This document shows, piece by piece, positions 83-18,042 of a stretch of DNA of 26,962 nucleotides (position 1 is the first letter of the stretch; every line of letters begins with the position of its first letter). This DNA is from an uncultured Erysipelotrichaceae bacterium (GTDB taxonomy: Bacteria > Bacillota_I > Bacilli_A > Erysipelotrichales > Erysipelotrichaceae). The position numbers and the translations under genes are program-made. Below the pieces are notes generated by a model. It was not told the DNA's origin. It saw only the letters and a program-made list of their open reading frames with translations, and made no database searches. The DNA is taken from the NCBI GenBank assembly GCA_964457525.1, contig CAYWGS010000011.1, positions 1-26,962 on the forward strand, given 5' to 3'.

Positions 83-139
83 ATGAATATAAAAGATGAA
101 TCACCTTTCATATTTGATTTATCAAAGGGGTATAAAGAA

Positions 140-1345: not shown

Positions 1346-1356
1346 GGGACAGAACA

Positions 1357-2076
1357 ATGAAATTAGATGGTAAAGTAGCAATTATTACAGGTGGTGCAAG
1401 AGGTTTAGGTCAAGCAATGGCAGAGGAATTTGCGAATGCTGGGGCTAAAGTTATTGCGGCTGATATGGGTGAATTAAGTTATTCTCATCCAAATGTAGAA
1501 GGTTACAAACTTAATGTGACGGATTCAGAAGCTTGTTTAAAATTCTTCAATGATGTCGTCGAAAAATACGGTAAAATTGATATTCTAGTTAATAATGCAG
1601 GAATTACTCGTGATGCATTAACACGCAAGATGACTGAAGAAATGTGGGACTTAGTTATTGATGTTAACCTTAAAGGTGTATTCAACTTAACTCGTCATGT
1701 GGGTCCTCATATGCAAGGTAATCAAACAGGATCCATTATTAACATCGCATCCATCGTTGGTGTGTTTGGAAATATTGGACAAGCAAACTATGCGGCTTCT
1801 AAAGCAGGTGTTATTGGTTTAACCAAGACTTGGGCTAAAGAATTTGCGATGAAGGGTGGCAATGTTCGTGTCAATGCGATTGCGCCTGGATATGTTATGA
1901 CCGATATCTTAAAGACTGTACCTCAAGACTTATTGGATAAATTCGCAGCAATGACGATGTTAGGTCGTTTAGGACAACCAGAAGAAATCGCTAAAGTTGC
2001 GTTATTCTTAGCAAGTGAAGATGCATCTTACATTACAGGCCAGGTTATCGAACCTAATGGAGGCATGAGACTCTAA
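1357..2076 (+). CDS. fabG: 3-oxoacyl-ACP / acetoacetyl-CoA reductase (classical SDR, FabG/PhaB-like), 239 aa
   Basis: TGGARGLG dinucleotide motif, NNAGITRD, catalytic YAASKAG (YxxxK) and PGYVMTD. SD AAGGGA lies 7 nt upstream. Confidence 0.9.
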   Translation: MKLDGKVAIITGGARGLGQAMAEEFANAGAKVIAADMGELSYSHPNVEGYKLNVTDSEACLKFFNDVVEKYGKIDILVNNAGITRDALTRKMTEEMWDLVIDVNLKGVFNLTRHVGPHMQGNQTGSIINIASIVGVFGNIGQANYAASKAGVIGLTKTWAKEFAMKGGNVRVNAIAPGYVMTDILKTVPQDLLDKFAAMTMLGRLGQPEEIAKVALFLASEDASYITGQVIEPNGGMRL

Positions 2077-2969
2077 TGAAACAATACGAAGTCAAGACTT
2101 TACTCCTAAGTAATGGTGAAACCATTGCTTACCGTGAATGTGGACATGGGGATAAGACAATTATCCTTGTTCATGGAAACATGAGTTCTTCTGTTCACTT
2201 TCAAACTACGATGGAAGCTTTAGAAAATGATTTTAAAGTATATGCCGTGGATATGCGTGGATTTGGGGATAGTTCTTATAACTCAGAACTAAATAGCTTA
2301 CATGACTTCTCTATTGATATTCAATTATGGATTAAAGCATTAGACCTAACGAACTTTACGATCTTAGGTTGGTCTACCGGTGGTGGTGTTGTGCTCGAAT
2401 TAGCAGCTGATATGCCACAACGTGTAAACAAAGTATTATTACTCGATTCTGTTGGTATTAAGGGTTATCCAATGTTTAAGAAAGATGAGAAGGGTCAGCC
2501 AATCTTAACTCAACTTATCACAACAAAAGAAGAAATAGCAGCAGATGCAGTTCAAGTATTACCAATTCTTGGAGCGTATGCGACACGTAATAAAGATTTA
2601 TTAAAGATTATTTGGAACGCGGTTATTTATAATCTTAAGCAACCAAGTGAAGAAGATTATGATCTTTACTTAGACGCAATGTTAAAACAACGTAATTTAG
2701 TCGATGTAGACTATAGTCTCGTACACTTCAATATGACATTAGATCACAATGGAATTAACTCTGGAAGTGGAAGAATACAACTCGTGAAAGCACCAGTTGT
2801 CATCATGCATGGTAAAGTTGATTACGTTGTACCATTCGCTTATGCAGAAGAAATGAAAACATACTTCAAGGATCAAGCAACACTTATTCCGTTTGAAAAT
2901 GTTGGACATTCTTGCATAACCGATAACTTCGATTTATTTATACAAACAGTGAAAGAAAATGTGGCTTAG
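2076..2969 (+). CDS. alpha/beta-fold serine hydrolase, 297 aa
   Basis: HGN oxyanion region (ILVHGNMSSS), nucleophile elbow GWSTGG, C-terminal VGHS histidine. The start overlaps the fabG-like stop by 1 nt (TAATG). Confidence 0.85.
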   Translation: MKQYEVKTLLLSNGETIAYRECGHGDKTIILVHGNMSSSVHFQTTMEALENDFKVYAVDMRGFGDSSYNSELNSLHDFSIDIQLWIKALDLTNFTILGWSTGGGVVLELAADMPQRVNKVLLLDSVGIKGYPMFKKDEKGQPILTQLITTKEEIAADAVQVLPILGAYATRNKDLLKIIWNAVIYNLKQPSEEDYDLYLDAMLKQRNLVDVDYSLVHFNMTLDHNGINSGSGRIQLVKAPVVIMHGKVDYVVPFAYAEEMKTYFKDQATLIPFENVGHSCITDNFDLFIQTVKENVA

Positions 2970-3998
2970 ATGGAAAAAGTAAATATTGGAATTATGGGGG
3001 TTGGTGTATATCTCCCGTCAGAGGTGATGACTGCGCGTGAAATCGCAGACGCAACCAATGGAGTTTGGAGTGAAACCGCTGTTATTGATAAACTTGGAAT
3101 TGTTCAAAAAACAGTGCCAGGTGCAAATGACGGAACCCAAGAAATGGGTGCTCTTGCGGCAATCGAAGCAGTTAAAGATGCGGGAATTGACCCTAGTGAA
3201 ATTGATGTCATTCTATGTTTTGGAGAAGAGTGGAAAGAGTATCCTCTAACAACTTCTGCACTATACATTCAAGATCGTGTTAAAGCCGTTAATGCTTGGG
3301 GTATCGATGTACAAAATCGTTGTTGCACATCGGTAACTGCACTTAAGATGGCGAAAGACATGATGATTGCGGATGATGAAATCAAGACTGTACTTGTCTG
3401 TGGTGGATACCGTAATAGTGATTTCGTAGACTACACTGATAAGAATATGTCAATGATGTATAACTTATCTGCTGGTGGTGGTGCACTTATCTTACGTAAA
3501 GGATTAAATAAGAACTTATTATTAGGATCACATATTATCTCTGATGGGTCTCTTGCTCGTACAGCTGGAGTTGAAATTGGTGGTACGGTTAATCCTTATA
3601 ATAAAGAAAATATCGAAACAGGCTTTAAATCCCTCCGCTTAATGGATGCGGAAAAGATGAAAAATCGTTTAAATGAAGTATCACAAGGGAATTGGTTGAA
3701 ATGTATCGATCGTGCTCTTGAGAAATCAGGTTTAGAAAGAAAAGATCTTGGTTATCTTGATATTCTACATATTAAACGTTCTGCTCACTTAGGTATGTTA
3801 AAGGATTTAGGTCTAAATGAAGATCAAAGTATTTATTTAGAAAATTATGGACATATGGGTCAAGTTGACCAAATTCTATCTTTATCCCTTGCGCTTAAAG
3901 AAGGTAAAGTTAAAGATGGAACAGTTATATGTATGTTAGCGGCAGGCATTGGGTATGTCTGGGCAGCTAATATTGTGAAATGGGGAGTGGCTCAGTGA
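2970..3998 (+). CDS. 3-oxoacyl-ACP synthase III (KAS III/FabH)-like condensing-enzyme family protein, 342 aa
   Basis: FabH-like N-terminus (IGIMGVGVYLPSEVMTAREI). By-eye alignment to E. coli FabH places DVQNRCCTSVTAL on the active-site Cys, ILHIKRS on HQAN and YGHMGQV on HGNTSAA. The start directly abuts the preceding stop. Confidence 0.8.
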   Translation: MEKVNIGIMGVGVYLPSEVMTAREIADATNGVWSETAVIDKLGIVQKTVPGANDGTQEMGALAAIEAVKDAGIDPSEIDVILCFGEEWKEYPLTTSALYIQDRVKAVNAWGIDVQNRCCTSVTALKMAKDMMIADDEIKTVLVCGGYRNSDFVDYTDKNMSMMYNLSAGGGALILRKGLNKNLLLGSHIISDGSLARTAGVEIGGTVNPYNKENIETGFKSLRLMDAEKMKNRLNEVSQGNWLKCIDRALEKSGLERKDLGYLDILHIKRSAHLGMLKDLGLNEDQSIYLENYGHMGQVDQILSLSLALKEGKVKDGTVICMLAAGIGYVWAANIVKWGVAQ

Positions 3999-4870
3999 GT
4001 ACCTTTATCCAAATCTTACTTAGAAGCTTAGAGTCTGGAAGTGTCTATGCACTTGCGGCTTTAGGGATCATCATTATCTATCGTACGTCTAATATCACTA
4101 ACTTCTCGCAAGGGGTTGTTGGGATGTTTAATACCTACGTAGTAACCTATTTGTTTATGAAAACGGGGGCACCTTTGTGGTTGTGTATCTTGGGTGGTGT
4201 TGTCAGTGCGATAGTAGTAGGATTAACCATCGACTTCTTAGTTATTCGTCATACTAAGAAAGTCGCTCCAGTAGCGAAGCAAATTATAACACTGGGTTTG
4301 ATTATGGTTATTATGGGGATTGCGCCAATCTTGTTTGGTGTCGATCCATTGAATCTTCCACGTTTAATTAACGAAGGGAATTTAACCATTCTCGGTGCAA
4401 ATATCTCATACAATGGTTTGTTTAACATTGTGTTTGGTATCGTGATTATGTTTATCTTATTTTATATCTTACAGAAGACGAAAATTGGTCTTGCGGTTCG
4501 TACAACTGCAAGTAATGAATTTACAGCTCGCTTAATGGGTGTTCCAACTAAAACAGTTACCATGGGTGCTTGGGCTGTTGCAGGGGTCTTAGGGGTTTTA
4601 GCAGGTGTTATGATTGCGCCTACGACAACGGTTACCTTGAACTTAATGGATGTCGTGCAAATTAATGCCTTAATCGCTTGTGTTCTAGGTGGTTTCCAAA
4701 CCTTCTATGGTCCGATTTTAGGGGCTTATATCATTGGTGTGAGTCGTAACTTATTGATTTATTATGTTTCAAGTGTATGGGGTGGACAAATCCTTTATAT
4801 CTTGATCCTAATCTTCTTGATTTTTAGACCATATGGTTTAATCGGTAAGAAGACTGTGAAGAAAGTGTAG
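3995..4870 (+). CDS. branched-chain amino acid (HAAT family) ABC transporter permease, LivH-like
   Basis: Polytopic hydrophobic protein with a LivH-type N-terminus (LLRSLESGSVYALAALGIIIIYRTS). I prefer GTG 3995 because GGGGAG lies 7 nt upstream and GTGA overlaps the KAS III-like stop. The ORF-track ATG at 3980 has no SD but cannot be excluded. Confidence 0.85.
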   Translation: MSTFIQILLRSLESGSVYALAALGIIIIYRTSNITNFSQGVVGMFNTYVVTYLFMKTGAPLWLCILGGVVSAIVVGLTIDFLVIRHTKKVAPVAKQIITLGLIMVIMGIAPILFGVDPLNLPRLINEGNLTILGANISYNGLFNIVFGIVIMFILFYILQKTKIGLAVRTTASNEFTARLMGVPTKTVTMGAWAVAGVLGVLAGVMIAPTTTVTLNLMDVVQINALIACVLGGFQTFYGPILGAYIIGVSRNLLIYYVSSVWGGQILYILILIFLIFRPYGLIGKKTVKKV

Positions 4871-4877
4871 GTTAAAT

Positions 4878-5924
4878 ATGAACAAGTTAAATATCGAAAC
4901 ACTTTCAAGCAAAATTAAAAAACTATCTAAAAATCCGTATTTACAGTTTATCCTCTTTGGATTAGTGCTAAGTACATTGCCGATCCTGGCCAGCCAATTT
5001 TCCTTTATTAAATCAGCGTATATCACAACCATCGGTGCTACTCTGATTTATGCCATTGCCGCTTTAGGCTTGAACATCCTCCTCGGTTGGTCAGGATTAA
5101 TTTCCCTAGGTACAGCTGGGTTTATGGGTCTTGCGAGTTATATCTCAGCGTATCTTACGGTTGACATGCAGCTTCCATTCGAAGTTGCGTTACTTGCAGC
5201 CATACTTGTACCAACCATTATTGGTGTACTTGTTGGATTGGTCTCACTCAAAATCGAGGGTCTCTACTTAGCAATTGCGACCTTGGCGGTTTCAGAAATC
5301 TTACGAAAGACCTTCGAAGAGTTTGAGCCATTAACCGGTGCGTTTAGTGGTAAAGCAGCGAAGTATCCAATGTTATTCAATAGTATTCAATTGGATCGAG
5401 CTTCAACTTATTATCTAATTGTATTTATCTTAGTGATTATCATGTTAATTACCTATAACTTAGTGAATGGCCAAATGGGACGTGCATTAAATGCAATGCG
5501 TGGATCAGAAGCTGCAGCTCAAGCAATGGGTGTTAACTTACTTAAATATCGTTTAGTCGCATTTGCACTTGCGACAATCTTCGCATCTGTTGCGGGTGTA
5601 CTTTATGTTCACTTCATTCGTTATTCGTATCCGTCCACTTGGACACTTAAATTATCTCTGGATTTCTTAGCGATGATTGTTATTGGTGGGGTTCGCTCCA
5701 TTTATGGAACAGTCTTAGGTGCATTCATTGTGTTTGCGGTTCCTGATTTGTTCTTGAAACAAATTCCTTATTTCAGTCAATTGTCTTATACCTTAAATGG
5801 TATTCTAATTATCCTTGTCATTATGTTCTATCCAAATGGGATTGTAATGATCTTTAGAGATATTAAGAATGTATTCTTAAAATTATTCAAGAAAGGAAAT
5901 GGAAATCATGTTAGCGGAAAATGA
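4878..5924 (+). CDS. HAAT-family ABC transporter permease, LivM-like, 348 aa
   Basis: Polytopic membrane protein with a LivM-type core (LNILLGWSGLISLGTAGFMGLASY). Confidence 0.88.
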   Translation: MNKLNIETLSSKIKKLSKNPYLQFILFGLVLSTLPILASQFSFIKSAYITTIGATLIYAIAALGLNILLGWSGLISLGTAGFMGLASYISAYLTVDMQLPFEVALLAAILVPTIIGVLVGLVSLKIEGLYLAIATLAVSEILRKTFEEFEPLTGAFSGKAAKYPMLFNSIQLDRASTYYLIVFILVIIMLITYNLVNGQMGRALNAMRGSEAAAQAMGVNLLKYRLVAFALATIFASVAGVLYVHFIRYSYPSTWTLKLSLDFLAMIVIGGVRSIYGTVLGAFIVFAVPDLFLKQIPYFSQLSYTLNGILIILVIMFYPNGIVMIFRDIKNVFLKLFKKGNGNHVSGK

Positions 5925-6714
5925 AGTTCTGAAGATTGAGAACTTATCCATTGCCTTCGGTGGTTTAAAAGCTGTTGATAACTTATCGTTTGAAATAAAG
6001 AAGAATGAAATCTTTGGATTAATAGGTCCGAATGGTGCAGGTAAAACAACGGTGTTTAACTGTATTACGCAGTTCTATAAACCCAATGATGGAAAAATCT
6101 TATTTAGACTAAAAGATGGATCAGAAACAAATCTTGTGGATCATAAAGTTCACGAGATTATCAAACTTGGTTTAGTTCGTACGTTCCAAAACGTTGAGCT
6201 AATTCGTGAATTAAGTATTCTCGATAATGTAATGATTGGAGCTCATATTGACTTCAAGGCAACGATTATTGAACAAGCACTCCGTTTACCTAGAGCACGT
6301 AAAGAAGAAAAACAACTTCGTTCAGAAGCGGAAGAAATTCTAAAACGTTTAGGTATTTGGGAACGTAAGGATATGTTGGTCTTTGGTCAACCGTATGGAA
6401 TTCTAAAGAAAGTAGAAATGGCTCGTACACTTATGTGTCGTCCATCACTTATTATCTTGGATGAACCTGCAGCTGGCTTAAATGATGTCGAAACACTTCA
6501 ATTAGCAGAGTTGATTCGTACGATTCGTGATGAATTTAATTGTTCAGTTCTACTCGTTGAACATGATATGCGTTTAGTTATGGATGTGTGTGATCGTATT
6601 TGTGCTATTTCGTTTGGTAAGTTCTTAGCGAAGGATACTGCAAAAGAAATCCAAAAGAATAAAGCAGTCCAAGAGGCTTATCTTGGTAGCAACGAGGAGA
6701 TTCATCATGTCTAA
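5908..6714 (+). CDS. HAAT-family ABC transporter ATP-binding protein, LivG-like
   Basis: Walker A GPNGAGKTT, Walker B LIILDEPAAGLN, LVEHDM switch. Start is either ATG 5908 (AGGAA 9 nt upstream) or ATG 5899 (ORF track). The gene overlaps the end of the LivM-like gene. Confidence 0.88.
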   Translation: MLAENEVLKIENLSIAFGGLKAVDNLSFEIKKNEIFGLIGPNGAGKTTVFNCITQFYKPNDGKILFRLKDGSETNLVDHKVHEIIKLGLVRTFQNVELIRELSILDNVMIGAHIDFKATIIEQALRLPRARKEEKQLRSEAEEILKRLGIWERKDMLVFGQPYGILKKVEMARTLMCRPSLIILDEPAAGLNDVETLQLAELIRTIRDEFNCSVLLVEHDMRLVMDVCDRICAISFGKFLAKDTAKEIQKNKAVQEAYLGSNEEIHHV

Positions 6715-7426
6715 TACAGCGTTATACATAAAAGGCTTAAAGGTACGTTATGGTGCGATTGAAGCGCTAAAAGGTATCGATATGGAAGTTAAAGAAGGGG
6801 ATGTTGTTGCGATTCTCGGTGCTAATGGTGCTGGTAAAACGACAACCTTACGTACGATTTCTGGGTTAATTGAGCCAGCAGAAGGAAGTATTCTATTCTA
6901 CAATCATGAGATTGGAAAATTAGAACCTGAAAAGATTGCGGCTTTGGGATTATCCCAATCTCCAGAAGGACGTCAAGTATTTAGAGATTTAACCGTTGAA
7001 GAGAACCTAAAAGTTGGGGCTTTCACGGTAAGAGACAAAAAGATTGTTAAGGAACAATTCGAAAAAGTATATCGTTACTTTCCAGTGTTAAAAGAACGTA
7101 AGAATCAAATTGCCTCTACCTTATCCGGTGGGGAACAACAGATGCTTGCGATTGGTAGAGCACTTATGAGTAATCCTAAGATTTTACTTCTAGATGAACC
7201 ATCCTTAGGTTTAGCACCACTCATTATTCGCGATATTATGAACATTGTCTTAGAGATTAAGAAATCTGGTACTACAGTCATTATTGTTGAACAGAATGCG
7301 GCTCAAACCTTAAAGATTGCGGATTATGCATACGTGTTGGAACTTGGTGAAATTAGTACCCATGGTCCTGCACAAGAATTATTAAATGATCCTAAGCTCA
7401 TTGAAGCGTATCTCGGATCGCATTAA
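6707..7426 (+). CDS. HAAT-family ABC transporter ATP-binding protein, LivF-like, 239 aa
   Basis: Walker A GANGAGKTT, ABC signature LSGGEQQMLAIGRAL, Walker B LLLDEPSLGLAP. ATG 6707 has SD GAGGAG about 7 nt upstream and overlaps the LivG-like stop by 8 nt. The ORF-track start at 6683 is a non-ATG extension. Confidence 0.9.
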   Translation: MSNTALYIKGLKVRYGAIEALKGIDMEVKEGDVVAILGANGAGKTTTLRTISGLIEPAEGSILFYNHEIGKLEPEKIAALGLSQSPEGRQVFRDLTVEENLKVGAFTVRDKKIVKEQFEKVYRYFPVLKERKNQIASTLSGGEQQMLAIGRALMSNPKILLLDEPSLGLAPLIIRDIMNIVLEIKKSGTTVIIVEQNAAQTLKIADYAYVLELGEISTHGPAQELLNDPKLIEAYLGSH

Positions 7427-7428
7427 TT

Positions 7429-7437
7429 TGGTATAAA
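7429..7437 (+). promoter_or_regulatory. possible internal extended -10 promoter ahead of the binding-protein gene
   Basis: TGgTATAAA at 7429-7437, with no convincing -35. A weak 6-bp hairpin (AATGCT/AGCATT, 7436-7450) overlaps it. AAGGAGG at 7462-7468 is one of the strongest SDs in the operon. Confidence 0.3.
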
Positions 7438-7473
7438 TGCTGAAAGCATTATATATAAAAAAAGGAGGAATAC

Positions 7474-8703
7474 ATGATGTTTAAGAAGTTGTTTATGATT
7501 CTTACTGTTATGGCATTAGCTACAACTTTAGTAGCTTGTGGTCCAAAAGAAGAAGTCGTTGAAGAAGTTGCTGCACAAGGGATTACAGACACTGAAGTTC
7601 TAATCGCTAACTGTGCTGCTACATCCGGTGCATTTGCACCTGTTGGTGTACCGTTTATCGCAGGTATTGAAGCTTATTTAAAGACGATTAATGATGCAGG
7701 TGGTATCGATGGTCGTACGATTAAATTCTTACACCAAGATGATGAATTTGACCCTGCTAAAGGTAAGGCTTGTTTAGCTTCCATGGTAGAAGATGAAAAA
7801 GTATTCGCAATCGTTGGTCACTTCGGTACTCCAGTTGTTGGGGCTACTCTTGAAGATCTAAAAGACTACGGTATTCCAGCTGTTTACTTCGCAACTGGTA
7901 TCGGTCAACTTTACAATGATAAAGCTGAAGGTCGCGATCGTGGTATTATGCCTGTTCAACCAATCTATGTCACAGAAGGACAAATCATGGTTGCACGTGC
8001 TGTTGGGGATTTCGGTGCTAAATCAATCGGTATCATCTATACAAATGATGACGCTGGTAAAGACATCTTAGCTGGTGCTCAAAAGAAAGCTGCTGAATTA
8101 GGCGTTACTTTAGTTGAAGCTCAAGTTGCTCCTGGTACAGATGATGCATCTGCTGCTGTTACTACAATTAAAGAAGCTAACGTTGATTTCATTATTGGTG
8201 GTGCTATCCAAGCTACTATCCCTACAATTATCAAAGAATTAGCTGCTCAAGGTAATGACAAAGACGTTATCACAACTTATGTTAACGTTGCGCCAGTTAT
8301 CGCTGAAGCTGTTATGAATGAAATTGCTGGTAAATTTGATGTTTACGGTAATGGTTGGGTTTCTTTTGAAAGTGAAATTCACCAAAAAGCTTTAGCTGAC
8401 TATACTGCAGCAATCGCTCCTGAATACGCTGCTAATGCTTACGCTATGACTGGTTGGATTGCAGCAACATTCTTCGTTGAAGGTTTAAAACGTTTAGAAG
8501 GTGATAAAGTTATCACTTGGGAAAACTATTTAGACGCAATGGAATCTGCTCCTATTCAAAACCCATTCGGTGGTTTAATTGATTACAGTAACGGTTTACG
8601 TGCTGGTACTCAAGAAATGAACCTTTCCAAGATTAATCCTGAAGCTCCTACTAAGTGGGAAGTTGTTGACGGATTAAGATCAATGGATGATTTATTAAAT
8701 TAA
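7474..8703 (+). CDS. ABC transporter substrate-binding lipoprotein (type I periplasmic-binding fold, LivK/Peripla_BP_6-like), 409 aa
   Basis: Signal peptide with lipobox LVAC (Cys22). Typical family core GITDTEVLIANCAATSGAFAPVG...INDAGGIDGRTIKFLHQDDEFDP. Strong SD. Confidence 0.9.
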   Translation: MMFKKLFMILTVMALATTLVACGPKEEVVEEVAAQGITDTEVLIANCAATSGAFAPVGVPFIAGIEAYLKTINDAGGIDGRTIKFLHQDDEFDPAKGKACLASMVEDEKVFAIVGHFGTPVVGATLEDLKDYGIPAVYFATGIGQLYNDKAEGRDRGIMPVQPIYVTEGQIMVARAVGDFGAKSIGIIYTNDDAGKDILAGAQKKAAELGVTLVEAQVAPGTDDASAAVTTIKEANVDFIIGGAIQATIPTIIKELAAQGNDKDVITTYVNVAPVIAEAVMNEIAGKFDVYGNGWVSFESEIHQKALADYTAAIAPEYAANAYAMTGWIAATFFVEGLKRLEGDKVITWENYLDAMESAPIQNPFGGLIDYSNGLRAGTQEMNLSKINPEAPTKWEVVDGLRSMDDLLN

Positions 8704-8725
8704 TAAGATACAATAAATATGATCG

Positions 8726-8751
8726 GTTGCGGAAGGTAAACCTTCCGCAAC
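8726..8751 (+). other. GC-rich intercistronic hairpin (partial terminator or mRNA 3-prime stabiliser)
   Basis: GTTGCGGAAGG-TAAA-CCTTCCGCAAC, an 11-bp perfect stem. It is followed by ACCCTTTATGG, which is not a proper U-tract, so it is not a canonical intrinsic terminator. Confidence 0.5.
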
Positions 8752-8772
8752 ACCCTTTATGGAGAAACAATA

Positions 8773-10077
8773 ATGGATATTTCAATGAAAAAGATTACTG
8801 CAAGTGAAGCAGTCAAAAAAGTTAAAAGTGGAATGATGATTGTTACAGGTTTAGGTTGTGCTGAAGGACGTGATTTCTTAAGTCAACTTCATACAATTGC
8901 AGATGAGGTAAGTGGGGTTACAGTTACAAATTGTTTGCCGATGTCTGATCCTGAGTTCATTAAGAAAGAATATAAAAATTCGTTCTATGTGGATGGTTGG
9001 TTTTATTCCCCTGCTTTGCGTAAAGCACATCAAAATGGAAATATATCCTTTATTCCGAATCATTTACATCTAGCTGGAACAAAGCGTTTAGCGCATGTTC
9101 ACACAGATATATATGTCGGTGCTTGTTCAATGCCAGACAAACATGGATATGTTTCTTTATCCTTAAGTAATACGTATGAAAAACGTGTCATTGAAGAAGC
9201 AGATTTAGTTATATTAGAAATTAACCCTAATATGCCATATACCTATGGAGATGTAGAACTTCATCTAAGTGAAGTTGACTATGTCATCGAATCCAATTAC
9301 TTACCTGCTGAATTGCCTGATACAGAACCAAATGAGAAAGATATTGCGATTGGAAATAGTATCGCAAGTCAAATCAATGATGGAGATACCATCCAACTCG
9401 GTATTGGAGGTATTCCAAATGCAGTCGCATCCGCATTAAAGAATAAAAAAGACTTAGGTGTACATACGGAAATGCTAACAACAGGTCTTATGAAGTTAGC
9501 GAAACTCGGTGTTGTGACAAATAAACGTAAAACTTTACACAAAGGTAAAATGGTTTGTACCTTTGCGATGGGGACGAAAGAACTCTATGAATACATTGAT
9601 CACAACCCAGGTGTTGCGGTTCTTGATGGAGCTTATACCAATGATCCTCATATTATCGGATTAAACGATAATATGGTCTCTATTAACACAACCTTAGAAA
9701 TTGACCTAACTGGACAATGTTGTTCAGAATCCATTGGTTCTACGCAGTTTAGTGGATCTGGTGGACAAGTTGATACCGCTGTTGGGGCACAAAATGCGAA
9801 GAATGGCCGTTCATTTATCGCTCTATATTCAACGGCAATGGTTAAAAATCCTGTAACAGGAGAGCGTGAAGAGATTTCTAAGATTGTTCCTCAATTAAAA
9901 CAAGGAGCGGTTGTTACTTTAAGTCGTAATGATGTGAACTATGTTGTTACGGAATATGGAATGGTAAACCTAAAAGGTACGAACGTTCGTGAACGTGTTA
10001 AACTACTCATTTCCATTGCTCATCCTAAGTTTAGAGATGAACTTCTTGAACAAGCTAAGGCGTTAGGTATTATCTAA
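8773..10077 (+). CDS. acetyl-CoA hydrolase/transferase family protein (4-hydroxybutyrate / butyryl-CoA:acetate CoA-transferase-like), 434 aa
   Basis: Size and motifs fit the family: QLGIGGIPNAV, VHTEMLTTG (candidate catalytic Glu region) and SGSGGQVD. SD GGAGA lies 7 nt upstream. Confidence 0.85.
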   Translation: MDISMKKITASEAVKKVKSGMMIVTGLGCAEGRDFLSQLHTIADEVSGVTVTNCLPMSDPEFIKKEYKNSFYVDGWFYSPALRKAHQNGNISFIPNHLHLAGTKRLAHVHTDIYVGACSMPDKHGYVSLSLSNTYEKRVIEEADLVILEINPNMPYTYGDVELHLSEVDYVIESNYLPAELPDTEPNEKDIAIGNSIASQINDGDTIQLGIGGIPNAVASALKNKKDLGVHTEMLTTGLMKLAKLGVVTNKRKTLHKGKMVCTFAMGTKELYEYIDHNPGVAVLDGAYTNDPHIIGLNDNMVSINTTLEIDLTGQCCSESIGSTQFSGSGGQVDTAVGAQNAKNGRSFIALYSTAMVKNPVTGEREEISKIVPQLKQGAVVTLSRNDVNYVVTEYGMVNLKGTNVRERVKLLISIAHPKFRDELLEQAKALGII

Positions 10078-10892
10078 TGGCAACCCTAGAATTTCAGGAT
10101 TATTCGATTTACTATGAAGTTTATGGTAAAGGGAAACCACTTTTAATCCTAAATGGTATTATGATGTCAACCGCTAGTTGGCAAATGTTTATTGCTAGTT
10201 TTAGTCAAAAGAATCAATTGATACTTGTTGATATGTTAGATCAAGGTCAATCTTCTAAGTTAGAAGGAATGGAATATACACAAGATTTACAAGTTGAAGT
10301 TGTTAAGACGGTTATTGAAAAACTTAATCTTAAAGATGTGGCATTGTTTGGAATTTCATATGGAGGAGAAGTTGCGATTAAGTTTGCGATTAAATATCCT
10401 CATTTAGTTGAGAGATGTTTGCTCTTTAATACAACAAGTTATACCAACCATTGGCTTCAAGAGATTGGGAATGCATGGAATCTTGCAAGTACCAATGCGG
10501 AACAATACTATGGCACAACCATTCCTGTTATTTACTCTTCTTACTTCTATGAATCGAAGATTAAATGGATGAATGATCGTAAGAAGATTTTATTAAATGT
10601 ATTTTCGAATCCAGTCTTTCAACGTGCCATGGTACGTTTAACCAATAGTGCTAATTCTCTTGATGAAAGAGCAAATCTACATAAGATTAAATGCCCATGT
10701 TTAATTGTTGGTTGTGATGAGGATGCGATAACACCGCTATCACACCAAAAATATTTACACGAGAATATTAAGAACTCGAGTTTAGTGATTGTTCCAGGCT
10801 CAGGACATGCGTCTATGTATGAGAAACCAATGTTATTTAGTTCACTTGTTTTAGGATTTGTACATTCGTTGATTATACCGGATGTGGTATAA
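10077..10892 (+). CDS. alpha/beta-fold serine hydrolase, 271 aa
   Basis: Nucleophile elbow GISYGG, acid region GCDEDAITP, histidine GSGHAS. TAATG overlap with the CoA-transferase stop. Confidence 0.85.
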   Translation: MATLEFQDYSIYYEVYGKGKPLLILNGIMMSTASWQMFIASFSQKNQLILVDMLDQGQSSKLEGMEYTQDLQVEVVKTVIEKLNLKDVALFGISYGGEVAIKFAIKYPHLVERCLLFNTTSYTNHWLQEIGNAWNLASTNAEQYYGTTIPVIYSSYFYESKIKWMNDRKKILLNVFSNPVFQRAMVRLTNSANSLDERANLHKIKCPCLIVGCDEDAITPLSHQKYLHENIKNSSLVIVPGSGHASMYEKPMLFSSLVLGFVHSLIIPDVV

Positions 10893-12327: not shown

Positions 12328-12891
12328 TTATTCTAATTCAGTTTTCTTACCTAATTTTATCACCTCATGAAATCTAAAATTAGAATCATCCATTAACTTT
12401 GAGTAGGATAGTGTATTATTACTCATACTCGATTCTGATAGTCCATAATAACTTAGTATTTGGTTAAGAGTATGTGTATCAATGGATTGATTAAAATCAA
12501 TAATGACTGTAACAGAATAACCAATATCCGTATTTTGAGCATACTTTGGATCGATGATATCATCTTCTACTTGTACTGAGATTGCATAACCATCCTTTGG
12601 ACTTAAATCAATAAAGTTGATGGTATCTGATGTTAGGTAAATATTTTCTAAATTCTGAAAGAATTCTAGATCTCGGTAATATTCTTCCAATAGAAGTTCT
12701 CGATTACCATACTCAATACTACTCTTTAATTCTCTTAATCCTATTTTAGTAATCTTATCTTCATTTAGTACGAACTTAATAACCCGATCATTCTCATTTT
12801 GATAGACAATCTGTTTTGTGTAATTTAATTGGCACGAACTTAAAACAAGAGTTAGTATAGAAACTATTATGAATTGATATCTATGTTTCAT
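12328..12891 (-). CDS. hypothetical lipoprotein, 187 aa
   Basis: Internal ATG at 12891 is preceded by GGGGGA. The signal peptide MKHRYQFIIVSILTLVLSSC carries lipobox LSSC (Cys20). The 39-codon upstream extension in the ORF track has no SD and disrupts the signal peptide. Confidence 0.75.
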   Translation of the reverse strand: MKHRYQFIIVSILTLVLSSCQLNYTKQIVYQNENDRVIKFVLNEDKITKIGLRELKSSIEYGNRELLLEEYYRDLEFFQNLENIYLTSDTINFIDLSPKDGYAISVQVEDDIIDPKYAQNTDIGYSVTVIIDFNQSIDTHTLNQILSYYGLSESSMSNNTLSYSKLMDDSNFRFHEVIKLGKKTELE

Positions 12892-13021: not shown

Positions 13022-13050
13022 TTGAGGGGATTGCGTAAAAAAGATATAAT
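13022..13050 (+). promoter_or_regulatory. sigma-A promoter of the nucleotidyltransferase-ADH pair
   Basis: TTGAGG at 13022-13027, 17-nt spacer, TATAAT at 13045-13050. Confidence 0.55.
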
Positions 13051-13073
13051 TGAATCAGCGAGGAATTAAAAAA

Positions 13074-13988
13074 ATGAATCAAGTAAGTTTAGTAATTTTA
13101 GCGGCTGGTATGGGTAGCCGTTATGGTGGTTTGAAGCAAATTGATACCGTTGGGAATAATGGCGAAAGTATCATTGACTTTACGATTTATGATGCGATTA
13201 AGGCTGGGTTTAAGAAAGTCTACTTAATCATCCGAAGAGAACATGAAGCTGCATTCGAAGAATCGTTAGTTAAGCGTGTTCGTCCGTTTGTAGAAGTAGA
13301 ATATGTGTTCCAAGATAAGGATGATTTGCCTGAAGGATTTAAATGTCCTGTGGGTCGTGAAAAACCTTGGGGAACAACGCATGCCTTATTGGCTTGTCGT
13401 CACCAGGTTAAAGAACCATTTATGATTTGTAATGCGGATGATTATTATGGTAAGGATGCATTCACAAGCATGTATGATTTCTTAACTCAATCTGTTGATG
13501 ATCAAAACTATTCGATGGTGGGTTATCGTTTGCGTAATACCTTATCTGATTCAGGAACGGTATCCCGTGGGGTATGTCAAATTGAAGATGGTAAGTTAAA
13601 AGATGTGGTTGAAATTGCGAAGATTAAACGTGATGGGGATCAAATTGTATACTTAACTAAGAATGAAACATGGGAAGCATTACCGTATGAAAGTTTAGTT
13701 TCCATGAATTTCTGGGGATTTACACCTAAGGTTTTTGAATTAGCAGAGAAACAATTTATTGAGTTTTTACATCGTGAGTTAGAAGGAAACCCAATGAAGT
13801 GTGAACATGTTATTCCAACGATGATTGGGGAAACCTTGAGTAAAGGTTTATATACTTTACATGCTTTATCGTCTGAGAACACATGGTTTGGTGTTACTTA
13901 TCAAGAAGATAAACCGTATGTTGTTAATCAGTTTAAACAATTTAAAGAAAATGGTGTTTATCCATTTAACTTATGGGAGGTTAAATAA
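13074..13988 (+). CDS. NTP-transferase-fold (sugar-phosphate nucleotidyltransferase family) protein, 304 aa
   Basis: N-terminal LVILAAGMGSRYGGLKQ (G-x-G-S-R signature), KPWGTTHA and ICNADDYYG. ATG 13074 has GAGGA upstream. The ORF-track TTG at 13050 overlaps the -10 box. Confidence 0.75.
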   Translation: MNQVSLVILAAGMGSRYGGLKQIDTVGNNGESIIDFTIYDAIKAGFKKVYLIIRREHEAAFEESLVKRVRPFVEVEYVFQDKDDLPEGFKCPVGREKPWGTTHALLACRHQVKEPFMICNADDYYGKDAFTSMYDFLTQSVDDQNYSMVGYRLRNTLSDSGTVSRGVCQIEDGKLKDVVEIAKIKRDGDQIVYLTKNETWEALPYESLVSMNFWGFTPKVFELAEKQFIEFLHRELEGNPMKCEHVIPTMIGETLSKGLYTLHALSSENTWFGVTYQEDKPYVVNQFKQFKENGVYPFNLWEVK

Positions 13989-15166
13989 TGAATAATTTTA
14001 CTTTTTATAATCCAGCTCGTATTGTGTTTGGTAAGGATACTGAACTTAAAGCGGGTTCGCTTATTAAAGAGTATGGAACACGTGTTCTCGTTCATTTTGG
14101 TGGTCACAGTGCTAAGGCATCTGGTTTACTCGATCGAGTGATTGATTCGTTACACAAAGAAGGCATTACTGTATTTGAATTAGGTGGAGTTAAACCGAAT
14201 CCAAGATACTCACTTGTAAAAGAGGGGATTGAGCTTTGTAAGAAAGAGAACATCCAAGCCATCTTAGCTGTGGGTGGTGGTAGTGTTATCGATAGTGCAA
14301 AAGCCATTGCGTTTGGTGCACTGATTGATGAAGATGTTTGGGATTACTACTTATATGGAAAAGCGATTAAAGATATTCTTCCACTTGGGGTTATTTTAAC
14401 GATACCTGCGGCAGGTAGTGAATCTTCCACAAGTACCGTATTAACGCATGATGAAACCTTGATTAAGCGTGGATTGGGATCTCCATTATTTATTCCTAAG
14501 TTTGCGATTATTAATCCTGAACTTCATTACAGTTTACCTAAGTTTCAAACAGCATGCGGTATCGTTGATATGAGTGCTCACTTAATTGAACGTTACTTCA
14601 CTCAAACTGAACACAATGATTTAACCGATCGTTTAATTGAAGCAAACTTAAAATCTATTATTGCGAATGCATTACCTGTACTTGAAAATCCAACGGACTA
14701 TAATGCACGTGCTGAAATTGCGTTCTGTGGTACGCTTGCACATAACGGATTATTTGGTGTAGGTAGAGTGGGTGATTGGGCAAGTCATTCGATTGAACAT
14801 GAACTTTCAGCGAAGTTTGATATTGCGCATGGAGCAGGACTCGCCATGATTATTCCTTGGTGGATGCGTCATGTTTATCAAGAAGGAACACATAAGTTTG
14901 TTCAATTTGCTCAACGTGTGTTTGATGTTCAATTAGATACACGTTATCCAGAACTCATCGCATTAGAAGGTATCCGTCGTTTAGAGTTGTTCTATCAATC
15001 ACTAGGTTTAGAAACAACCACTACAGGATTACCAATTGATGAAGCAGTGATTGAAGAAATGACTGAGAAGATATTTGTGGCTCGTGATAGTCAAACCTTA
15101 GGTTTCTTTAAACCTTTAACAAGAGAAGATATAAAAGCGATTTATCGAAGTGCGAACCAAAAATAA
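13988..15166 (+). CDS. iron-containing alcohol dehydrogenase (butanol dehydrogenase / YqhD-like), 392 aa
   Basis: MNNFTFYNPARIVFGKD N-terminus, GGGSVIDSAK, metal-binding His cluster HSIEHELSAKFDIAHGAGLA. TAATG overlap with the upstream stop. Confidence 0.9.
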   Translation: MNNFTFYNPARIVFGKDTELKAGSLIKEYGTRVLVHFGGHSAKASGLLDRVIDSLHKEGITVFELGGVKPNPRYSLVKEGIELCKKENIQAILAVGGGSVIDSAKAIAFGALIDEDVWDYYLYGKAIKDILPLGVILTIPAAGSESSTSTVLTHDETLIKRGLGSPLFIPKFAIINPELHYSLPKFQTACGIVDMSAHLIERYFTQTEHNDLTDRLIEANLKSIIANALPVLENPTDYNARAEIAFCGTLAHNGLFGVGRVGDWASHSIEHELSAKFDIAHGAGLAMIIPWWMRHVYQEGTHKFVQFAQRVFDVQLDTRYPELIALEGIRRLELFYQSLGLETTTTGLPIDEAVIEEMTEKIFVARDSQTLGFFKPLTREDIKAIYRSANQK

Positions 15167-15186
15167 AAGATGGGCAACCATCTTTT
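15166..15186. terminator. bidirectional terminator shared by the ADH gene (+) and the TraB-micropeptide operon (-)
   Basis: AAAGATGG-GCAA-CCATCTTT. On the minus strand it is followed by TTTTATTTTTGG (good U-tract). On the plus strand only TTTT follows. Confidence 0.65.
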
Positions 15187-15289
15187 ACTTTGACTTATTT
15201 TGATTTAACACAATAACCATCACAACAATAAGCGCACCTGTAAATACAGCCAAACCAATAAATAGTAGATAACTAAGAGAAAAGATCAT
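15185..15289 (-). CDS. unannotated hydrophobic micropeptide, 34 aa (MIFSLSYLLFIGLAVFTGALIVVMVIVLNQNKSK)
   Basis: Hand-translated codon by codon. ATG at 15289 is preceded by AAGGAGGT (15293-15300) and the TAA stop is at 15185-15187, abutting the terminator. One predicted TM helix plus a basic C-terminal tail. Below the ORF-track size cutoff. Confidence 0.6.
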   Translation of the reverse strand: MIFSLSYLLFIGLAVFTGALIVVMVIVLNQNKSK

Positions 15290-15301
15290 TATACCTCCTT
15301 A

Positions 15302-15388
15302 TTATTTAGGGCTAGAAACTGCCACAATGATAACAATCAAGAGTATGATTATAACTAAACCACCTAAACCCAATAACATGATTGACAT
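15302..15388 (-). CDS. unannotated hydrophobic micropeptide, 28 aa (MSIMLLGLGGLVIIILLIVIIVAVSSPK)
   Basis: Hand-translated. ATG at 15388 has AAGGAG 5 nt upstream, and that SD overlaps the TraB stop codon (TAAGGAG). The TAA stop is at 15302-15304. One predicted TM helix. An alternative start is Met4. Confidence 0.55.
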   Translation of the reverse strand: MSIMLLGLGGLVIIILLIVIIVAVSSPK

Positions 15389-15397
15389 AGAAACTCC

Positions 15398-16540
15398 TTA
15401 ATTAAATAAATTCTTTATCAGATCAATAGAATATACGATCGAACCCAAACTAGCAAACACGTTCGCAAGTAAGACAACAAGTAAGATACGGGCAACTCGA
15501 TTGGTCCAATATCCTTTGATGTGTAGGACATCATCTTGTAGATTCATGAAATCTTCTACTTTTGGCTTATGTACCCATGCTTCCATTAATCCAGCAAACC
15601 AACCCGTCGCAAGGAATGGACTTAAGACCCCGATCGGTGCCATTACGAATGCAGTAAGGATACTAAGTGGATGTCCAAGGGCGATAAGTGTACCCAGTGC
15701 AGCTAAACTCCCATTGATTAGAATGAAACGTAGTATTGTATCATACGCTAATCCAGGAGAGTTAATAATACTAAGTAAGATTAATCCAACAATGAAAAGT
15801 GGAAAAATCCAAGCGGTTAATTGACTATTCTTTTTCTTATTTACTTGAAGAATATTTGAAATCGGTGTGTTATTGGTTAAGTTCTTTTGTATGCCAGGAA
15901 CATGAGCAGCCCCAACTACAGCCACAATTTTTTGACCATTTGCATGTGCTAACTTATAGGCCATGATACGATCTCGTTCAAAGATAAGAGTCTCCGCTAT
16001 CTTAGGGAATTGTTTACTGACTTCCGCTAGTGCGGATTGTAACATATCACCTTGTTTAAGGGCTTCGATGTCTTCTTCCTTAACATCATTTTCAAATAAA
16101 GAACCTAAGAGTTCGGATAACATCTTAATTTTTTCAAACCAACCTAAATTATGCCAAATGCGTAAAAGGGTTGTTTGAATATTCCGGTCAATCATAATAA
16201 GCTTTGTTTGATTCTCTTTACTGTATTGAATCGCTACACTCATTTCTTGACCAACATTTTGATTTAAATTCTGTGCAATCTTGCGTTGATAAGAAGATAA
16301 AATCATTTGAGCCAAAAGAAAACCAACTTTCTTTTTCTTGATAATATCGACAATATCCATTTCCTTCCAATCCTTTGTTTCAGTCATGGATTTATAACGT
16401 TCATCATCTAATTCAATCGCTACGGTATCGGGTTGAATCTCTATCAGGGCTTGTTTGACTTCTTCTACACTATCACTGGAAATATGAGCTGTTCCAATAA
16501 TCGTGATTTCTTTTCCATTAATGACTTCTTGTATTCGCAT
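15398..16540 (-). CDS. TraB/PrgY (TraB/GumN) family membrane protein, 380 aa
   Basis: N-terminal family motifs IIGTAHIS (G16-H19), AIELD (E43), FERDRIMA (188-194) and VVGAAHVPG (G210-H213). The C-terminal about 140 aa contain roughly 4 hydrophobic helices. SD AGAAAGG lies 6 nt upstream. Confidence 0.88.
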   Translation of the reverse strand: MRIQEVINGKEITIIGTAHISSDSVEEVKQALIEIQPDTVAIELDDERYKSMTETKDWKEMDIVDIIKKKKVGFLLAQMILSSYQRKIAQNLNQNVGQEMSVAIQYSKENQTKLIMIDRNIQTTLLRIWHNLGWFEKIKMLSELLGSLFENDVKEEDIEALKQGDMLQSALAEVSKQFPKIAETLIFERDRIMAYKLAHANGQKIVAVVGAAHVPGIQKNLTNNTPISNILQVNKKKNSQLTAWIFPLFIVGLILLSIINSPGLAYDTILRFILINGSLAALGTLIALGHPLSILTAFVMAPIGVLSPFLATGWFAGLMEAWVHKPKVEDFMNLQDDVLHIKGYWTNRVARILLVVLLANVFASLGSIVYSIDLIKNLFN

Positions 16541-16588: not shown

Positions 16589-16597
16589 TGTTATAAT
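16589..16597 (+). promoter_or_regulatory. extended -10 promoter of the cdaA string
   Basis: TGtTATAAT at 16589-16597 with no clear -35. GAGGAGG at 16607-16613 lies 7 nt before ATG 16621. Confidence 0.55.
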
Positions 16598-16620
16598 AAT
16601 TTCGCTGAGGAGGTCTGTTC

Positions 16621-18042
16621 ATGTTTAATTATACGACCCAACAAACAATCATCCAAATGTTTCGGATGTTCTTCGATATCCTTATTCTATGGGTATTACT
16701 CTATTATACAATTAAGATCGTTCGAAATAACTCAAGAACTACACAAATTTTCAAAGGAATCATACTAATCCTAATCATTCGAGCGATTGCCAACTTTTTT
16801 GGCTTCAAAGCGGTTGACTGGTTAGCGGGAGTCCTAGTGACCTATGGTTTCTTAGCTATCATAATAATTTTCCAACCAGAAATTCGATCCTTATTAGAAA
16901 AACTTGGGAAAAGTAGTGTTTTCTCACGTTTAAATACCTTATCTGTGAATGAACGTTTACGCTTAGTAGATGAATTAGTTAATGCGACAATGGCGTGTTC
17001 AACGAGTAAGGTCGGTGCTTTGATTACACTTGAACAAGGGCATTCACTTAGTGATTTTATCAAAACAGGGACACGCATGAACTCTATCGTGACCGCTGAT
17101 TTATTACAAACAATTTTTATGCCTTCCACACCACTCCATGATGGGGCGGTTATTATACAAGGGGATCGTATTGCGTGTGCAAGTGCGTATTTTCCTCCAA
17201 CCAATTTAGAAGTTCCGAGCCGTTATGGTGCACGTCATCGTGCTGCGATTGGGATTAGTGAAATTACAGATTCTGTTACGATTGTTGTGTCTGAAAAGAC
17301 GGGTCGTATTTCAATTGCGGAAGAAGGAAAGTTGATTACGATGAACCAACAAAGCTTAAGATCTTACTTGGAACAAGTCATCTTGCAGGATGAAGAAGAA
17401 GTTTATGATCCTGATCCAAATAAGGCTGTTGGGACTGTTCAAAAGGAAGAGGTTCAAATACCAAAACCAATTACTTTCAAGACAAAAGAAAATATGCCTG
17501 AAGTTAAACCGACTGATCGATTAAATTTTAATTTTAAAGGATTATTTAAGAAGAAACTTAAAGTTAAGAAAACGAATCAAACGGAAGAACCTAAAGTTAC
17601 AAAAGTTGAAGAAACCCTAGAAAATCAAATAGAAGAAACGAAAGTTGTTCAGGTAGAAGAAGTTAATTTAGATAAAACTGAAGCAATAAGTGTTGATCAA
17701 GTTGAAGTTCAAAATGATCCTAAGGAAGTATTGGAAGATGTTTTAAATGTGGTTAAAGAGAAGTTATCCACTAAAACAGTTAATAAACCAATAAAGAAAC
17801 GTACGTCTAGGAAGAAAGCAGTGGAAGAAAAAGTAGAACAAGCTGTTTCTGAAGAAGTTGTTCATGAGGAATTACCTCAAGAACTATTTGATCAAGAAGA
17901 GATTGTGTTGGTTGATCCACTTGAAGTTAAAGAAGAAAAAGAAGTAACGATTAAATCAATACCACACATTAAATTAGAATACAGTGTGTCCGATGATTCA
18001 CTGTTAGATGATGAAGAAGAATCTAAGGGAGGTGAGCAATAA
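16621..18042 (+). CDS. cdaA: diadenylate cyclase CdaA with a long C-terminal extension, 473 aa
   Basis: Three N-terminal TM helices, then a DAC domain with PLHDGAVII and YGARHRAAIGISE...IVVSEKTGRIS. Residues from about 257 to 473 are an E/K/V-rich tail. Confidence 0.93.
   Translation: MFNYTTQQTIIQMFRMFFDILILWVLLYYTIKIVRNNSRTTQIFKGIILILIIRAIANFFGFKAVDWLAGVLVTYGFLAIIIIFQPEIRSLLEKLGKSSVFSRLNTLSVNERLRLVDELVNATMACSTSKVGALITLEQGHSLSDFIKTGTRMNSIVTADLLQTIFMPSTPLHDGAVIIQGDRIACASAYFPPTNLEVPSRYGARHRAAIGISEITDSVTIVVSEKTGRISIAEEGKLITMNQQSLRSYLEQVILQDEEEVYDPDPNKAVGTVQKEEVQIPKPITFKTKENMPEVKPTDRLNFNFKGLFKKKLKVKKTNQTEEPKVTKVEETLENQIEETKVVQVEEVNLDKTEAISVDQVEVQNDPKEVLEDVLNVVKEKLSTKTVNKPIKKRTSRKKAVEEKVEQAVSEEVVHEELPQELFDQEEIVLVDPLEVKEEKEVTIKSIPHIKLEYSVSDDSLLDDEEESKGGEQ

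Follow-up and report, generated by a model that had tools for sequence, protein, structure and literature searches.

Two conserved small open reading frames downstream of a chromosomal traB gene very likely encode single-helix membrane proteins in an Erysipelotrichaceae lineage

The DNA analyzed here, hereafter the window, is a 26,962-nucleotide (nt) stretch from an uncultured Erysipelotrichaceae bacterium (GenBank assembly GCA_964457525.1, contig CAYWGS010000011.1), in which a gap of 231 nt separates a gene for a TraB-family membrane protein from a convergent gene for an Fe-type alcohol dehydrogenase (Fe-ADH). A preliminary description had placed two tandem minus-strand open reading frames (ORFs) of 28 and 34 amino acids (aa) in this gap, each with a single hydrophobic stretch and a polar or basic C-terminus, and both were found in the sequence as described. 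Here, we report that these ORFs, ORF1 and ORF2, are very likely two genuine small membrane-protein genes and occupy the second and third positions in a traB operon. They are regarded as real coding ORFs because their frames, starts, Shine–Dalgarno (SD) sites, stops, and lengths are kept at near-saturated synonymous divergence. The wider statement, that they are small membrane proteins with the N-terminus outside and the C-terminus inside (N-out/C-in), co-expressed with TraB and probably its partners, has in our judgment about an even chance of being correct.

The traB loci were collected from genomes, from metagenomes, and by exact look-up of TraB homologues, and the DNA 3' of each traB was read. 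At 82–100% TraB identity (loci L001, L002, L027, L028, L037–L041, and L046–L048), both ORFs are found 3' of traB; the contig of L041 stops within ORF2. At 75% identity (L003–L006 and L029, all Erysipelotrichaceae metagenome-assembled genomes [MAGs]), one ORF of 30 aa occupies this position. At 63–67% identity (L030 and L042–L045), there is no ORF, and traB is directly followed by a terminator in L030 and L043–L045 and by an unrelated gene in L042. At 36–49% identity (L007–L025 and L031–L034), tRNA genes, terminators, or unrelated genes lie 3' of traB, and no small hydrophobic ORF was found there. With none at ≤67% identity, one at 75%, and two at ≥82%, the distribution is a concise example of an operon that has recently gained small genes. 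The family is restricted to one lineage, namely Erysipelotrichaceae-type MAGs from metagenome assemblies.

Within the 82–100% group, ORF1 is always 28 aa long (seven distinct variants) and ORF2 32–34 aa (10 variants). The ATG and the stop codon of both ORFs are kept, and length differences among the variants are whole codons throughout. The preliminary description had named frame conservation with a synonymous bias in TraB relatives as the check on its proposal, and frames broken beside a conserved traB as the outcome that would speak against it; the frames proved intact in all relatives examined in this group, and no broken case was seen at ≥75% identity, where the 75% clade has its single ORF. 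A GGAG core stands directly 3' of the traB stop in all relatives, in the form of TAAGGAG, TAAAGGAG, or TAAAAGGAG. The SD of ORF2 is kept in the L001, L027, L038, L048, and L041 types and is absent in the type represented by L002, L040, and L046, in which the ORF2 ATG lies 6–7 nt past the ORF1 stop. This arrangement therefore argues strongly for translational coupling of ORF2 to ORF1 in the latter sub-lineage. L046 and L047 carry other DNA in place of the ADH gene and the shared terminator, and each still has both small ORFs 3' of traB. The ORFs thus travel with traB and not with the downstream gene, and no copies away from traB were found in the fetched loci.

The ORF of the 75% clade, MTMSFLFFVGLTALAFVLLIVVMMVVIKRQ, is preceded by the SD AAAGGAG and has already been called as "hypothetical protein" on ~90 contigs. 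It is nearer to ORF2 (z-score 5.5, tblastn E = 0.003) than to ORF1 (z-score 3.7), and we tentatively take it as the ORF2 counterpart, on an alignment that needs a one-residue gap inside the helix. ORF1 and ORF2 compared with each other as paralogues gave a weak signal (z ~2, p 0.02–0.06).

The substitution patterns agree with protein coding. For traB, comparison of the window with L001, L027, and L002 gave a synonymous divergence (dS) of ~1.25–1.4, which is near saturation, and a ratio of nonsynonymous to synonymous divergence (dN/dS) of 0.05–0.07. Over all pairs compared, dN/dS was 0.12–0.39 for ORF1 and 0.08–0.13 for ORF2 at a dS of ~0.4–2, and substitutions in the ORFs decreased by codon position in the order 3 > 1 >> 2. 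Judged by these ratios, both ORFs are under purifying selection. Of the six frames, the sense minus-strand frame alone has no stop across the two ORFs in each of the eight distinct loci. The invariant residues of ORF1 are M1, S2, G7, V12, I21, A23, and K28.

One observation tells against this reading of the strand. The antisense frame sharing third codon positions with ORF1 is stop-free over ORF1 in all eight loci, and its ratio of nonsynonymous to synonymous differences (pN/pS) is similar because these positions are shared; dN/dS does not by itself fix the coding strand over ORF1. The minus-strand assignment follows from the starts, SDs, stops, and lengths together with the ORF2 part. An antisense gene was considered as a candidate and rejected: it has no conserved start and no SD, its length ranges from 21 to 63 aa, and it meets stops in the ORF2 part (window, L038, and L048). 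In the public gene calls of L038 and L039, a 63-aa antisense ORF (2632..2823, minus strand, equivalent to approximately 15210..15410 on the plus strand of the window) is given instead of the small genes, which is probably a recurring misannotation.

The departure from chance was evaluated by shuffling the 234-nt gap 20,000 times with its dinucleotide composition preserved. One or more SD-preceded ORFs of ≥25 aa appeared in 4% of the shuffles, one that was hydrophobic too in 0.1%, two SD-preceded ORFs on one strand in 0.01%, and two hydrophobic SD-preceded ORFs in none (0/20,000). No other SD-preceded hydrophobic small ORF was found on either strand of the whole 27-kb window, and no other SD-preceded small ORF, hydrophobic or not, was found in its intergenic gaps. 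A GGAG core lies ≤20 nt from the start in just seven of the 26 large genes of the window; the SDs of ORF1 and ORF2 are among the best in the window, and that of traB itself is weak. The arrangement is not explained by chance, in line with the earlier assessment.

The coordinates of the locus are listed in Table 1. Near-consensus SDs at proper spacing had been described for both ORFs, and this holds: the spacing from GGAG to ATG is 5 nt for ORF1, and the ATG of ORF2 lies 3 nt beyond AAGGAGGT. ORF1 ends with a double stop, TAATAA, whose second TAA runs into the SD of ORF2. The two ORFs account for 192 of the 231 gap bases, the remainder being the two SD spacers and the terminator, so that the gap is nearly filled and ORF2 does end at the terminator hairpin, as had been noted. 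A consensus scan detected no promoter-like site between traB and the terminator. The overlap of the ORF1 SD with the traB stop and the single terminator beyond ORF2 place the three genes in the same transcription unit, and we strongly infer a three-gene minus-strand operon of traB, ORF1, and ORF2. The candidate promoter lies within the 80-nt divergent region common to traB and cdaA.

Table 1. Positions of the traB operon and its convergent neighbor in the window
Feature	Position	Strand	Remarks
Candidate sigma-70-type promoter of traB-orf1-orf2, TGAACA-17-TATTAT	16593..16621	-	Consensus scan, 9/12 matches
traB	15398..16540	-	First gene of the operon; stop TAA at 15398..15400
ORF1 SD site, AAGGAG	15394..15399	-	Overlaps the traB stop as TAAGGAG
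ORF1, 28 aa, MSIMLLGLGGLVIIILLIVIIVAVSSPK	15302..15388	-	ATG at 15388; one predicted transmembrane helix
ORF2 SD site, AAGGAGGT	15293..15300	-	Directly 3' of the ORF1 double stop
ORF2, 34 aa, MIFSLSYLLFIGLAVFTGALIVVMVIVLNQNKSK	15185..15289	-	One predicted transmembrane helix; basic/polar C-terminal tail
Bidirectional intrinsic terminator of the traB operon (-) and Fe-ADH (+)	15160..15191	.	Terminator scan and RNA fold
Fe-ADH	13988..15166	+	Convergent on the traB operon; PF00465/PF25137

The hairpin core of the terminator spans 15164..15187, and the RNA hairpin of the minus strand has a folding energy of -14.3 kcal/mol (z = -3.3 versus shuffles) and is followed by the U-run UUUUAUUUUU. It was assigned as a shared bidirectional terminator because of this fold and U-run and because the stops of both genes lie at its ends. 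In the palindrome, TAAAAGATGG-GCAA-CCATCTTTTA, the outermost triplets are the stop codons of Fe-ADH and ORF2, the first triplet of the hairpin core being the ORF2 stop TAA. The hairpin is kept nearly base for base in L002, L038, L040, and L048, despite the synonymous saturation of the flanking coding DNA.

The Fe-ADH side of the locus differs among the relatives. The 63–67% clade (L030 and L043–L045) has neither Fe-ADH nor the small ORFs, and a nucleotidyl-transferase gene, homologous to that at 13050..13988 of the window, converges directly on traB. Since both are missing in this clade, Fe-ADH and the small genes appear in the same lineage. The Fe-ADH gene of L048 (2872..4053, minus strand) was called as four separate pieces (98, 72, 183, and 55 aa), which represents a pseudogene or an assembly error; the adjoining small ORFs are intact.

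Both ORFs are shorter than 50 aa with a single transmembrane (TM) segment, and the maxima of Kyte–Doolittle hydropathy in 17- to 19-residue windows are 2.9–3.5. Charges are found at the C-termini only, in SSPK of ORF1 and in NQNKSK or RRNRD of ORF2. The N-terminal part has no Lys or Arg in any variant of ORF1, nor in ORF2 except for K10 of the L002, L040, and L046 type. The positive-inside rule thus predicts an N-out/C-in topology for both peptides. The invariant residues of ORF2 (S4, L5, L9, G12, F16, A19, L20, and M24) form an i/i+3/i+4 stripe on one helical face. The helical conservation moment of ORF2 is 0.35, a value reached by nine of 10,000 position permutations (p = 0.0009). Such a one-face stripe is the pattern expected of a specific helix–helix contact, and we infer that ORF2 may make one.

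No family in Pfam-A or NCBIfam matched ORF1 or ORF2 at the curated cutoff, even with permissive E-values. The best subthreshold profiles were DUF3917 (15.6 bits, cutoff 25.1), DUF3149 (14.9 bits, cutoff 23.2), and GG_III-CTERM (12 bits, cutoff 22), all of which are matches of TM composition. A search of the gap region against Rfam with E-values up to 1 returned noise, the best being rli40 at 15.8 bits versus a cutoff of 100, and the sole strong RNA structure in the region is the terminator. The term "unannotated" used in the preliminary description was examined indirectly. The exact window peptides of both ORFs are absent from a collection of 15 billion proteins, and a variant of ORF2 has been called as a gene once: a phmmer search of ORF2 against 1.84 billion cluster representatives gave a single match, the 94%-identical variant P0001 from a near-identical strain. 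The ORFs had also been called strongly ribosome-bound, a property beyond what sequence can show. An origin by duplication of a TraB C-terminal helix was rejected, as no similarity beyond composition was detected (z -0.9 to 1.6). A readthrough fusion with TraB was rejected too: the window, L001, L002, and L003 have ORF1 in the traB frame, whereas L038, L041, and L048 have it out of frame, with 10 nt from stop to ATG.

The TraB protein of the window (380 aa) has an N-terminal putative metalloprotease-like domain and four to five C-terminal TM helices (residues ~239–379). It matches TIGR00261 with 326.2 bits (cutoff 178.35) over residues 7–376 and PF01963 with 113 bits (cutoff 26.8); with the Pfam assignment of Fe-ADH in Table 1, both flanking genes are those named at the outset. 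The residues invariant in 25 homologues are G16-T-A-H19, E43, R48, E188-R189-D190, and G210-A-A-H213. The metalloprotease site reportedly proposed by Bazan and coworkers in 2013 consists of two GxxH motifs with conserved acidic and Arg residues. The window TraB has these motifs and residues intact and is by its motifs a TraB/PrgY/Tiki-type protein with a putative catalytic site. The AlphaFold2 (AF2) model (predicted local distance difference test [pLDDT] score, 79) consists of an alpha/beta N-domain and helices at 239–260, 262–286, 291–306, 312–324, and 348–379. We know of no function or substrate for the bacterial and archaeal membrane proteins of the TraB/Tiki family outside the Enterococcus plasmid PrgY/TraB. 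The nearest solved structures in fold and sequence searches of the PDB were the "TraB family protein" of Tetrahymena mitochondrial complex IV and ChaN. The former, an accessory subunit of the complex (7w5z_E and 8b6h_DQ), provides the sole solved full-length relatives of the TraB architecture, and its GxxH motifs look degenerate in the hidden Markov model alignment (GTTNSS and VNQWH).

The window also contains cdaA, cdaR (YbbR), glmM, Fe-ADH, a nucleotidyl transferase, Maf, and a two-component system as neighbors of traB. In all relatives, traB is divergent from cdaA-cdaR-glmM, and because of this synteny we regard the protein as a chromosomal TraB and not as part of a pheromone plasmid.

Small single-helix proteins beside larger membrane proteins are a known kind, and the ORF1/ORF2 pair is new and without family assignment. 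Operon-encoded accessory proteins of this kind include KdpF of KdpFABC, CydX of cytochrome bd, AcrZ of AcrB, and CcoQ/CcoS (reviewed in PMC12648545). Like them, ORF1 and ORF2 are <50 aa, have one predicted TM helix in the N-out/C-in orientation, and share a transcription unit with a larger membrane protein. Members of the KdpF/CydX/AcrZ class are also routinely missed by annotation and conserved together with the presumed partner gene, as is the case here. Unlike them, the two ORFs are tandem genes instead of one, they have no sequence relationship to these proteins, and the presumed partner is of the TraB/Tiki type, binding to which is suggested by analogy. In the literature searched, no small partner of a TraB/Tiki-type protein has been described. 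BofA with SpoIVFB and MgtR with FtsH are examples of small membrane proteins regulating membrane proteases. The case of ORF1 and ORF2 would be similar in concept, as a short membrane protein modulating a membrane-embedded metalloprotease, but the protease families differ, homology is lacking, and BofA, with 87 aa and two helices, is larger.

Based on the linkage and on the analogy with KdpF-, CydX-, and AcrZ-type proteins, we propose that ORF1 and ORF2 are partners of TraB. Of the three roles suggested in the preliminary description, that of small membrane-protein subunits gives the best fit, in view of the operon linkage to traB across a change of context and the one-face conservation of ORF2. 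We favor the partnership because of this linkage, which is invariant, the translational coupling, and the one-sided conservation of ORF2. Transcription of the operon would probably start at a promoter in the region shared with cdaA and would end at the hairpin shared with Fe-ADH. ORF1 and ORF2 would then be translated from their own strong SDs, each directly past the preceding stop codon; in the sub-lineage without the ORF2 SD, ORF2 would rely on re-initiation 6–7 nt past the ORF1 stop. Any transcription of traB would thus yield the small proteins as well, probably at a higher molar level than TraB because their SDs are stronger than that of traB. Each product would be essentially one TM helix with an N-terminus of 3–5 residues outside and a short polar/basic tail inside, located in the membrane next to the four- to five-helix domain of TraB, itself a putative metalloprotease of the Tiki/PrgY type. 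In this position, they may act as small accessory or modulatory partners of TraB, singly or as an ORF1–ORF2 pair, with ORF2 packing via its conserved face (S4/L5-L9-G12-F16-A19/L20-M24).

Several observations weigh against the partnership. The membrane domain of TraB is nearly invariant in clades with and without the small ORFs. No co-adaptation of TraB to the ORFs was detected, the sole clade-specific fixed difference being I7L, which is outside the membrane. TraB relatives of ≤67% identity lack the ORFs altogether. The SDs of the small ORFs are far stronger than that of traB, unlike what would be expected of simple 1:1 subunits. In ORF1, conservation is spread around the helix and is not one-sided.

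These observations bear on a first alternative, in which ORF1 and ORF2 are genuine small membrane proteins carried along on the traB mRNA, with a function unrelated to TraB, such as a membrane or stress role or a place in another complex. On this account, TraB would need no adaptation to the presence of the ORFs, its relatives of ≤67% identity would work without them, and the strong SDs would permit expression levels independent of TraB. The ORFs also arose in a lineage with a remodeled neighborhood, the ADH gene being confined to the ORF-bearing clade. Against it, the ORFs stay directly 3' of traB, with an SD overlapping its stop, in all of at least 12 loci; the linkage holds even where all downstream DNA differs (L046 and L047), and no copy occurs elsewhere in the fetched DNA. 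We consider this alternative possible, on the unlikely side.

A second alternative is that the ORFs encode dedicated hydrophobic substrates or precursors of the TraB/PrgY-type protease, which would trim or degrade the co-expressed peptides in a manner akin to enterococcal pheromone control. The Enterococcus PrgY/TraB proteins, the only studied bacterial members of the family, are thought to degrade or sequester hydrophobic pheromone peptides, which are short and derived from lipoprotein signal sequences (PMC7117660), and archaeal members, described as unassigned Tiki-superfamily membrane metalloproteases, co-occur with lipoproteins (PMC12462473). The intact GxxH, Glu, and Arg motifs of catalytic type in the window TraB fit this alternative, as do the highly conserved N-termini of the peptides (M-S in ORF1 and F-S-L in ORF2), and expression above the level of TraB would be more in keeping with a substrate than with a subunit. 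The precursors of the inhibitor peptides iAD1 (iad) and iCF10 (prgQ) resemble signal peptides: the N-terminus is basic, and the mature heptapeptide or octapeptide lies at the C-terminus. ORF1 and ORF2 share with them a very short length, hydrophobicity, and a genetic association with a protein of the TraB/PrgY family, but their N-termini are uncharged and their C-termini polar or basic, so that their polarity is opposite to that of the iAD1 and iCF10 precursors. The plasmid loci of iAD1 and iCF10 contain traA/prgX and traC/prgZ, whereas ORF1 and ORF2 are chromosomal and lie beside cdaA-cdaR-glmM; in the window, no pheromone-response context was encountered, that is, no traA/prgX regulator, traC/prgZ binding protein, or conjugation genes, and no receptor or oligopeptide-binding genes. 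Moreover, conservation extends along the whole helix (on one face in ORF2) and not over a short mature-peptide segment, and the protease activity of bacterial TraB is only putative. Substrates or precursors of the protease are therefore an unlikely explanation, and the pheromone or inhibitor precursors of the preliminary description are disfavored on the same grounds. Slightly more doubtful still is the specific version in which a chromosomal TraB/PrgY-type protease and its cognate peptides, encoded in the genome as substrates or precursors, would make up a self-contained cassette. If true, such a cassette would reveal the targets of the widespread non-plasmid TraB proteins, and it may be a module for peptide signaling or autoregulation with a link to how enterococcal pheromone shutdown originated.

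Membrane-active toxins of the type I-toxin, holin, or bacteriocin type, the last of the three earlier suggestions, are very unlikely. The likeness lies in size and shape: the type I toxins of Firmicutes (Fst/Ldr-like, TxpA, and BsrG) are also ~30 aa long and combine a hydrophobic helix with a C-terminal tail that is polar or charged. Unlike them, the ORFs have no promoter of their own and no Rfam antitoxin match, and as second and third cistrons they are co-transcribed with a conserved chromosomal gene of housekeeping type from consensus SDs that are strong, exposed, and constitutive. There is no antisense RNA signal among the families catalogued in Rfam, and the antisense ORFs are not conserved. 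The peptides are not cationic or amphipathic as leaderless bacteriocins are, no immunity or export genes lie nearby, and purifying selection acts on one helical face of ORF2. Least credible of all is that the region is non-coding on the minus strand, being a conserved 3' untranslated region or having the antisense ORF as its gene: the open antisense frame over ORF1 and its choice by gene callers in L038 and L039 are set against the irregular antisense ORFs, the regular starts, SDs, stops, and lengths of the sense ORFs, a least variable codon position that is sense position 2, the absence of an Rfam family match, and the terminator as the only strong RNA structure of the region.

The tightly linked single-helix pair offers a concrete experimental handle on TraB, be it as binding partners or, under the second alternative, as candidate substrates. 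For annotation, the result concerns two conserved genes that are mostly missed by standard gene callers, with the antisense 63-aa ORF called in their place in some assemblies. ORF1 is 87 nt including the stop codon, and the usual minimum gene length of Prodigal-type callers, believed to be 90 nt, is above this. For specialists, the finding is useful rather than surprising, given a narrow family of a well-known kind.

Some other features of the window were noted. CdaA (16621..18042, plus strand; 473 aa) has its DAC domain at residues 121–238, followed by a disordered-looking tail of ~200 residues rich in Glu, Lys, and Val. The length of this tail varies between relatives, with called products of 440–563 aa. 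The ORF at 12328..12891 (minus strand) has no Pfam match. The listed 226-aa version probably starts too far upstream; from an internal ATG, the product starts with MKHRYQFIIVSILTLVLSSC and looks like a lipoprotein, having a predicted signal peptide with the lipobox L-S-S-C. A co-directional cluster at 83..10892 (plus strand) encodes a thiolase, a short-chain dehydrogenase, two alpha/beta hydrolases, a KAS-III-like enzyme, a five-gene ABC transporter of the branched-chain-amino-acid type, and an acetyl-CoA hydrolase/transferase, followed by a TetR regulator, and looks like one metabolic unit.

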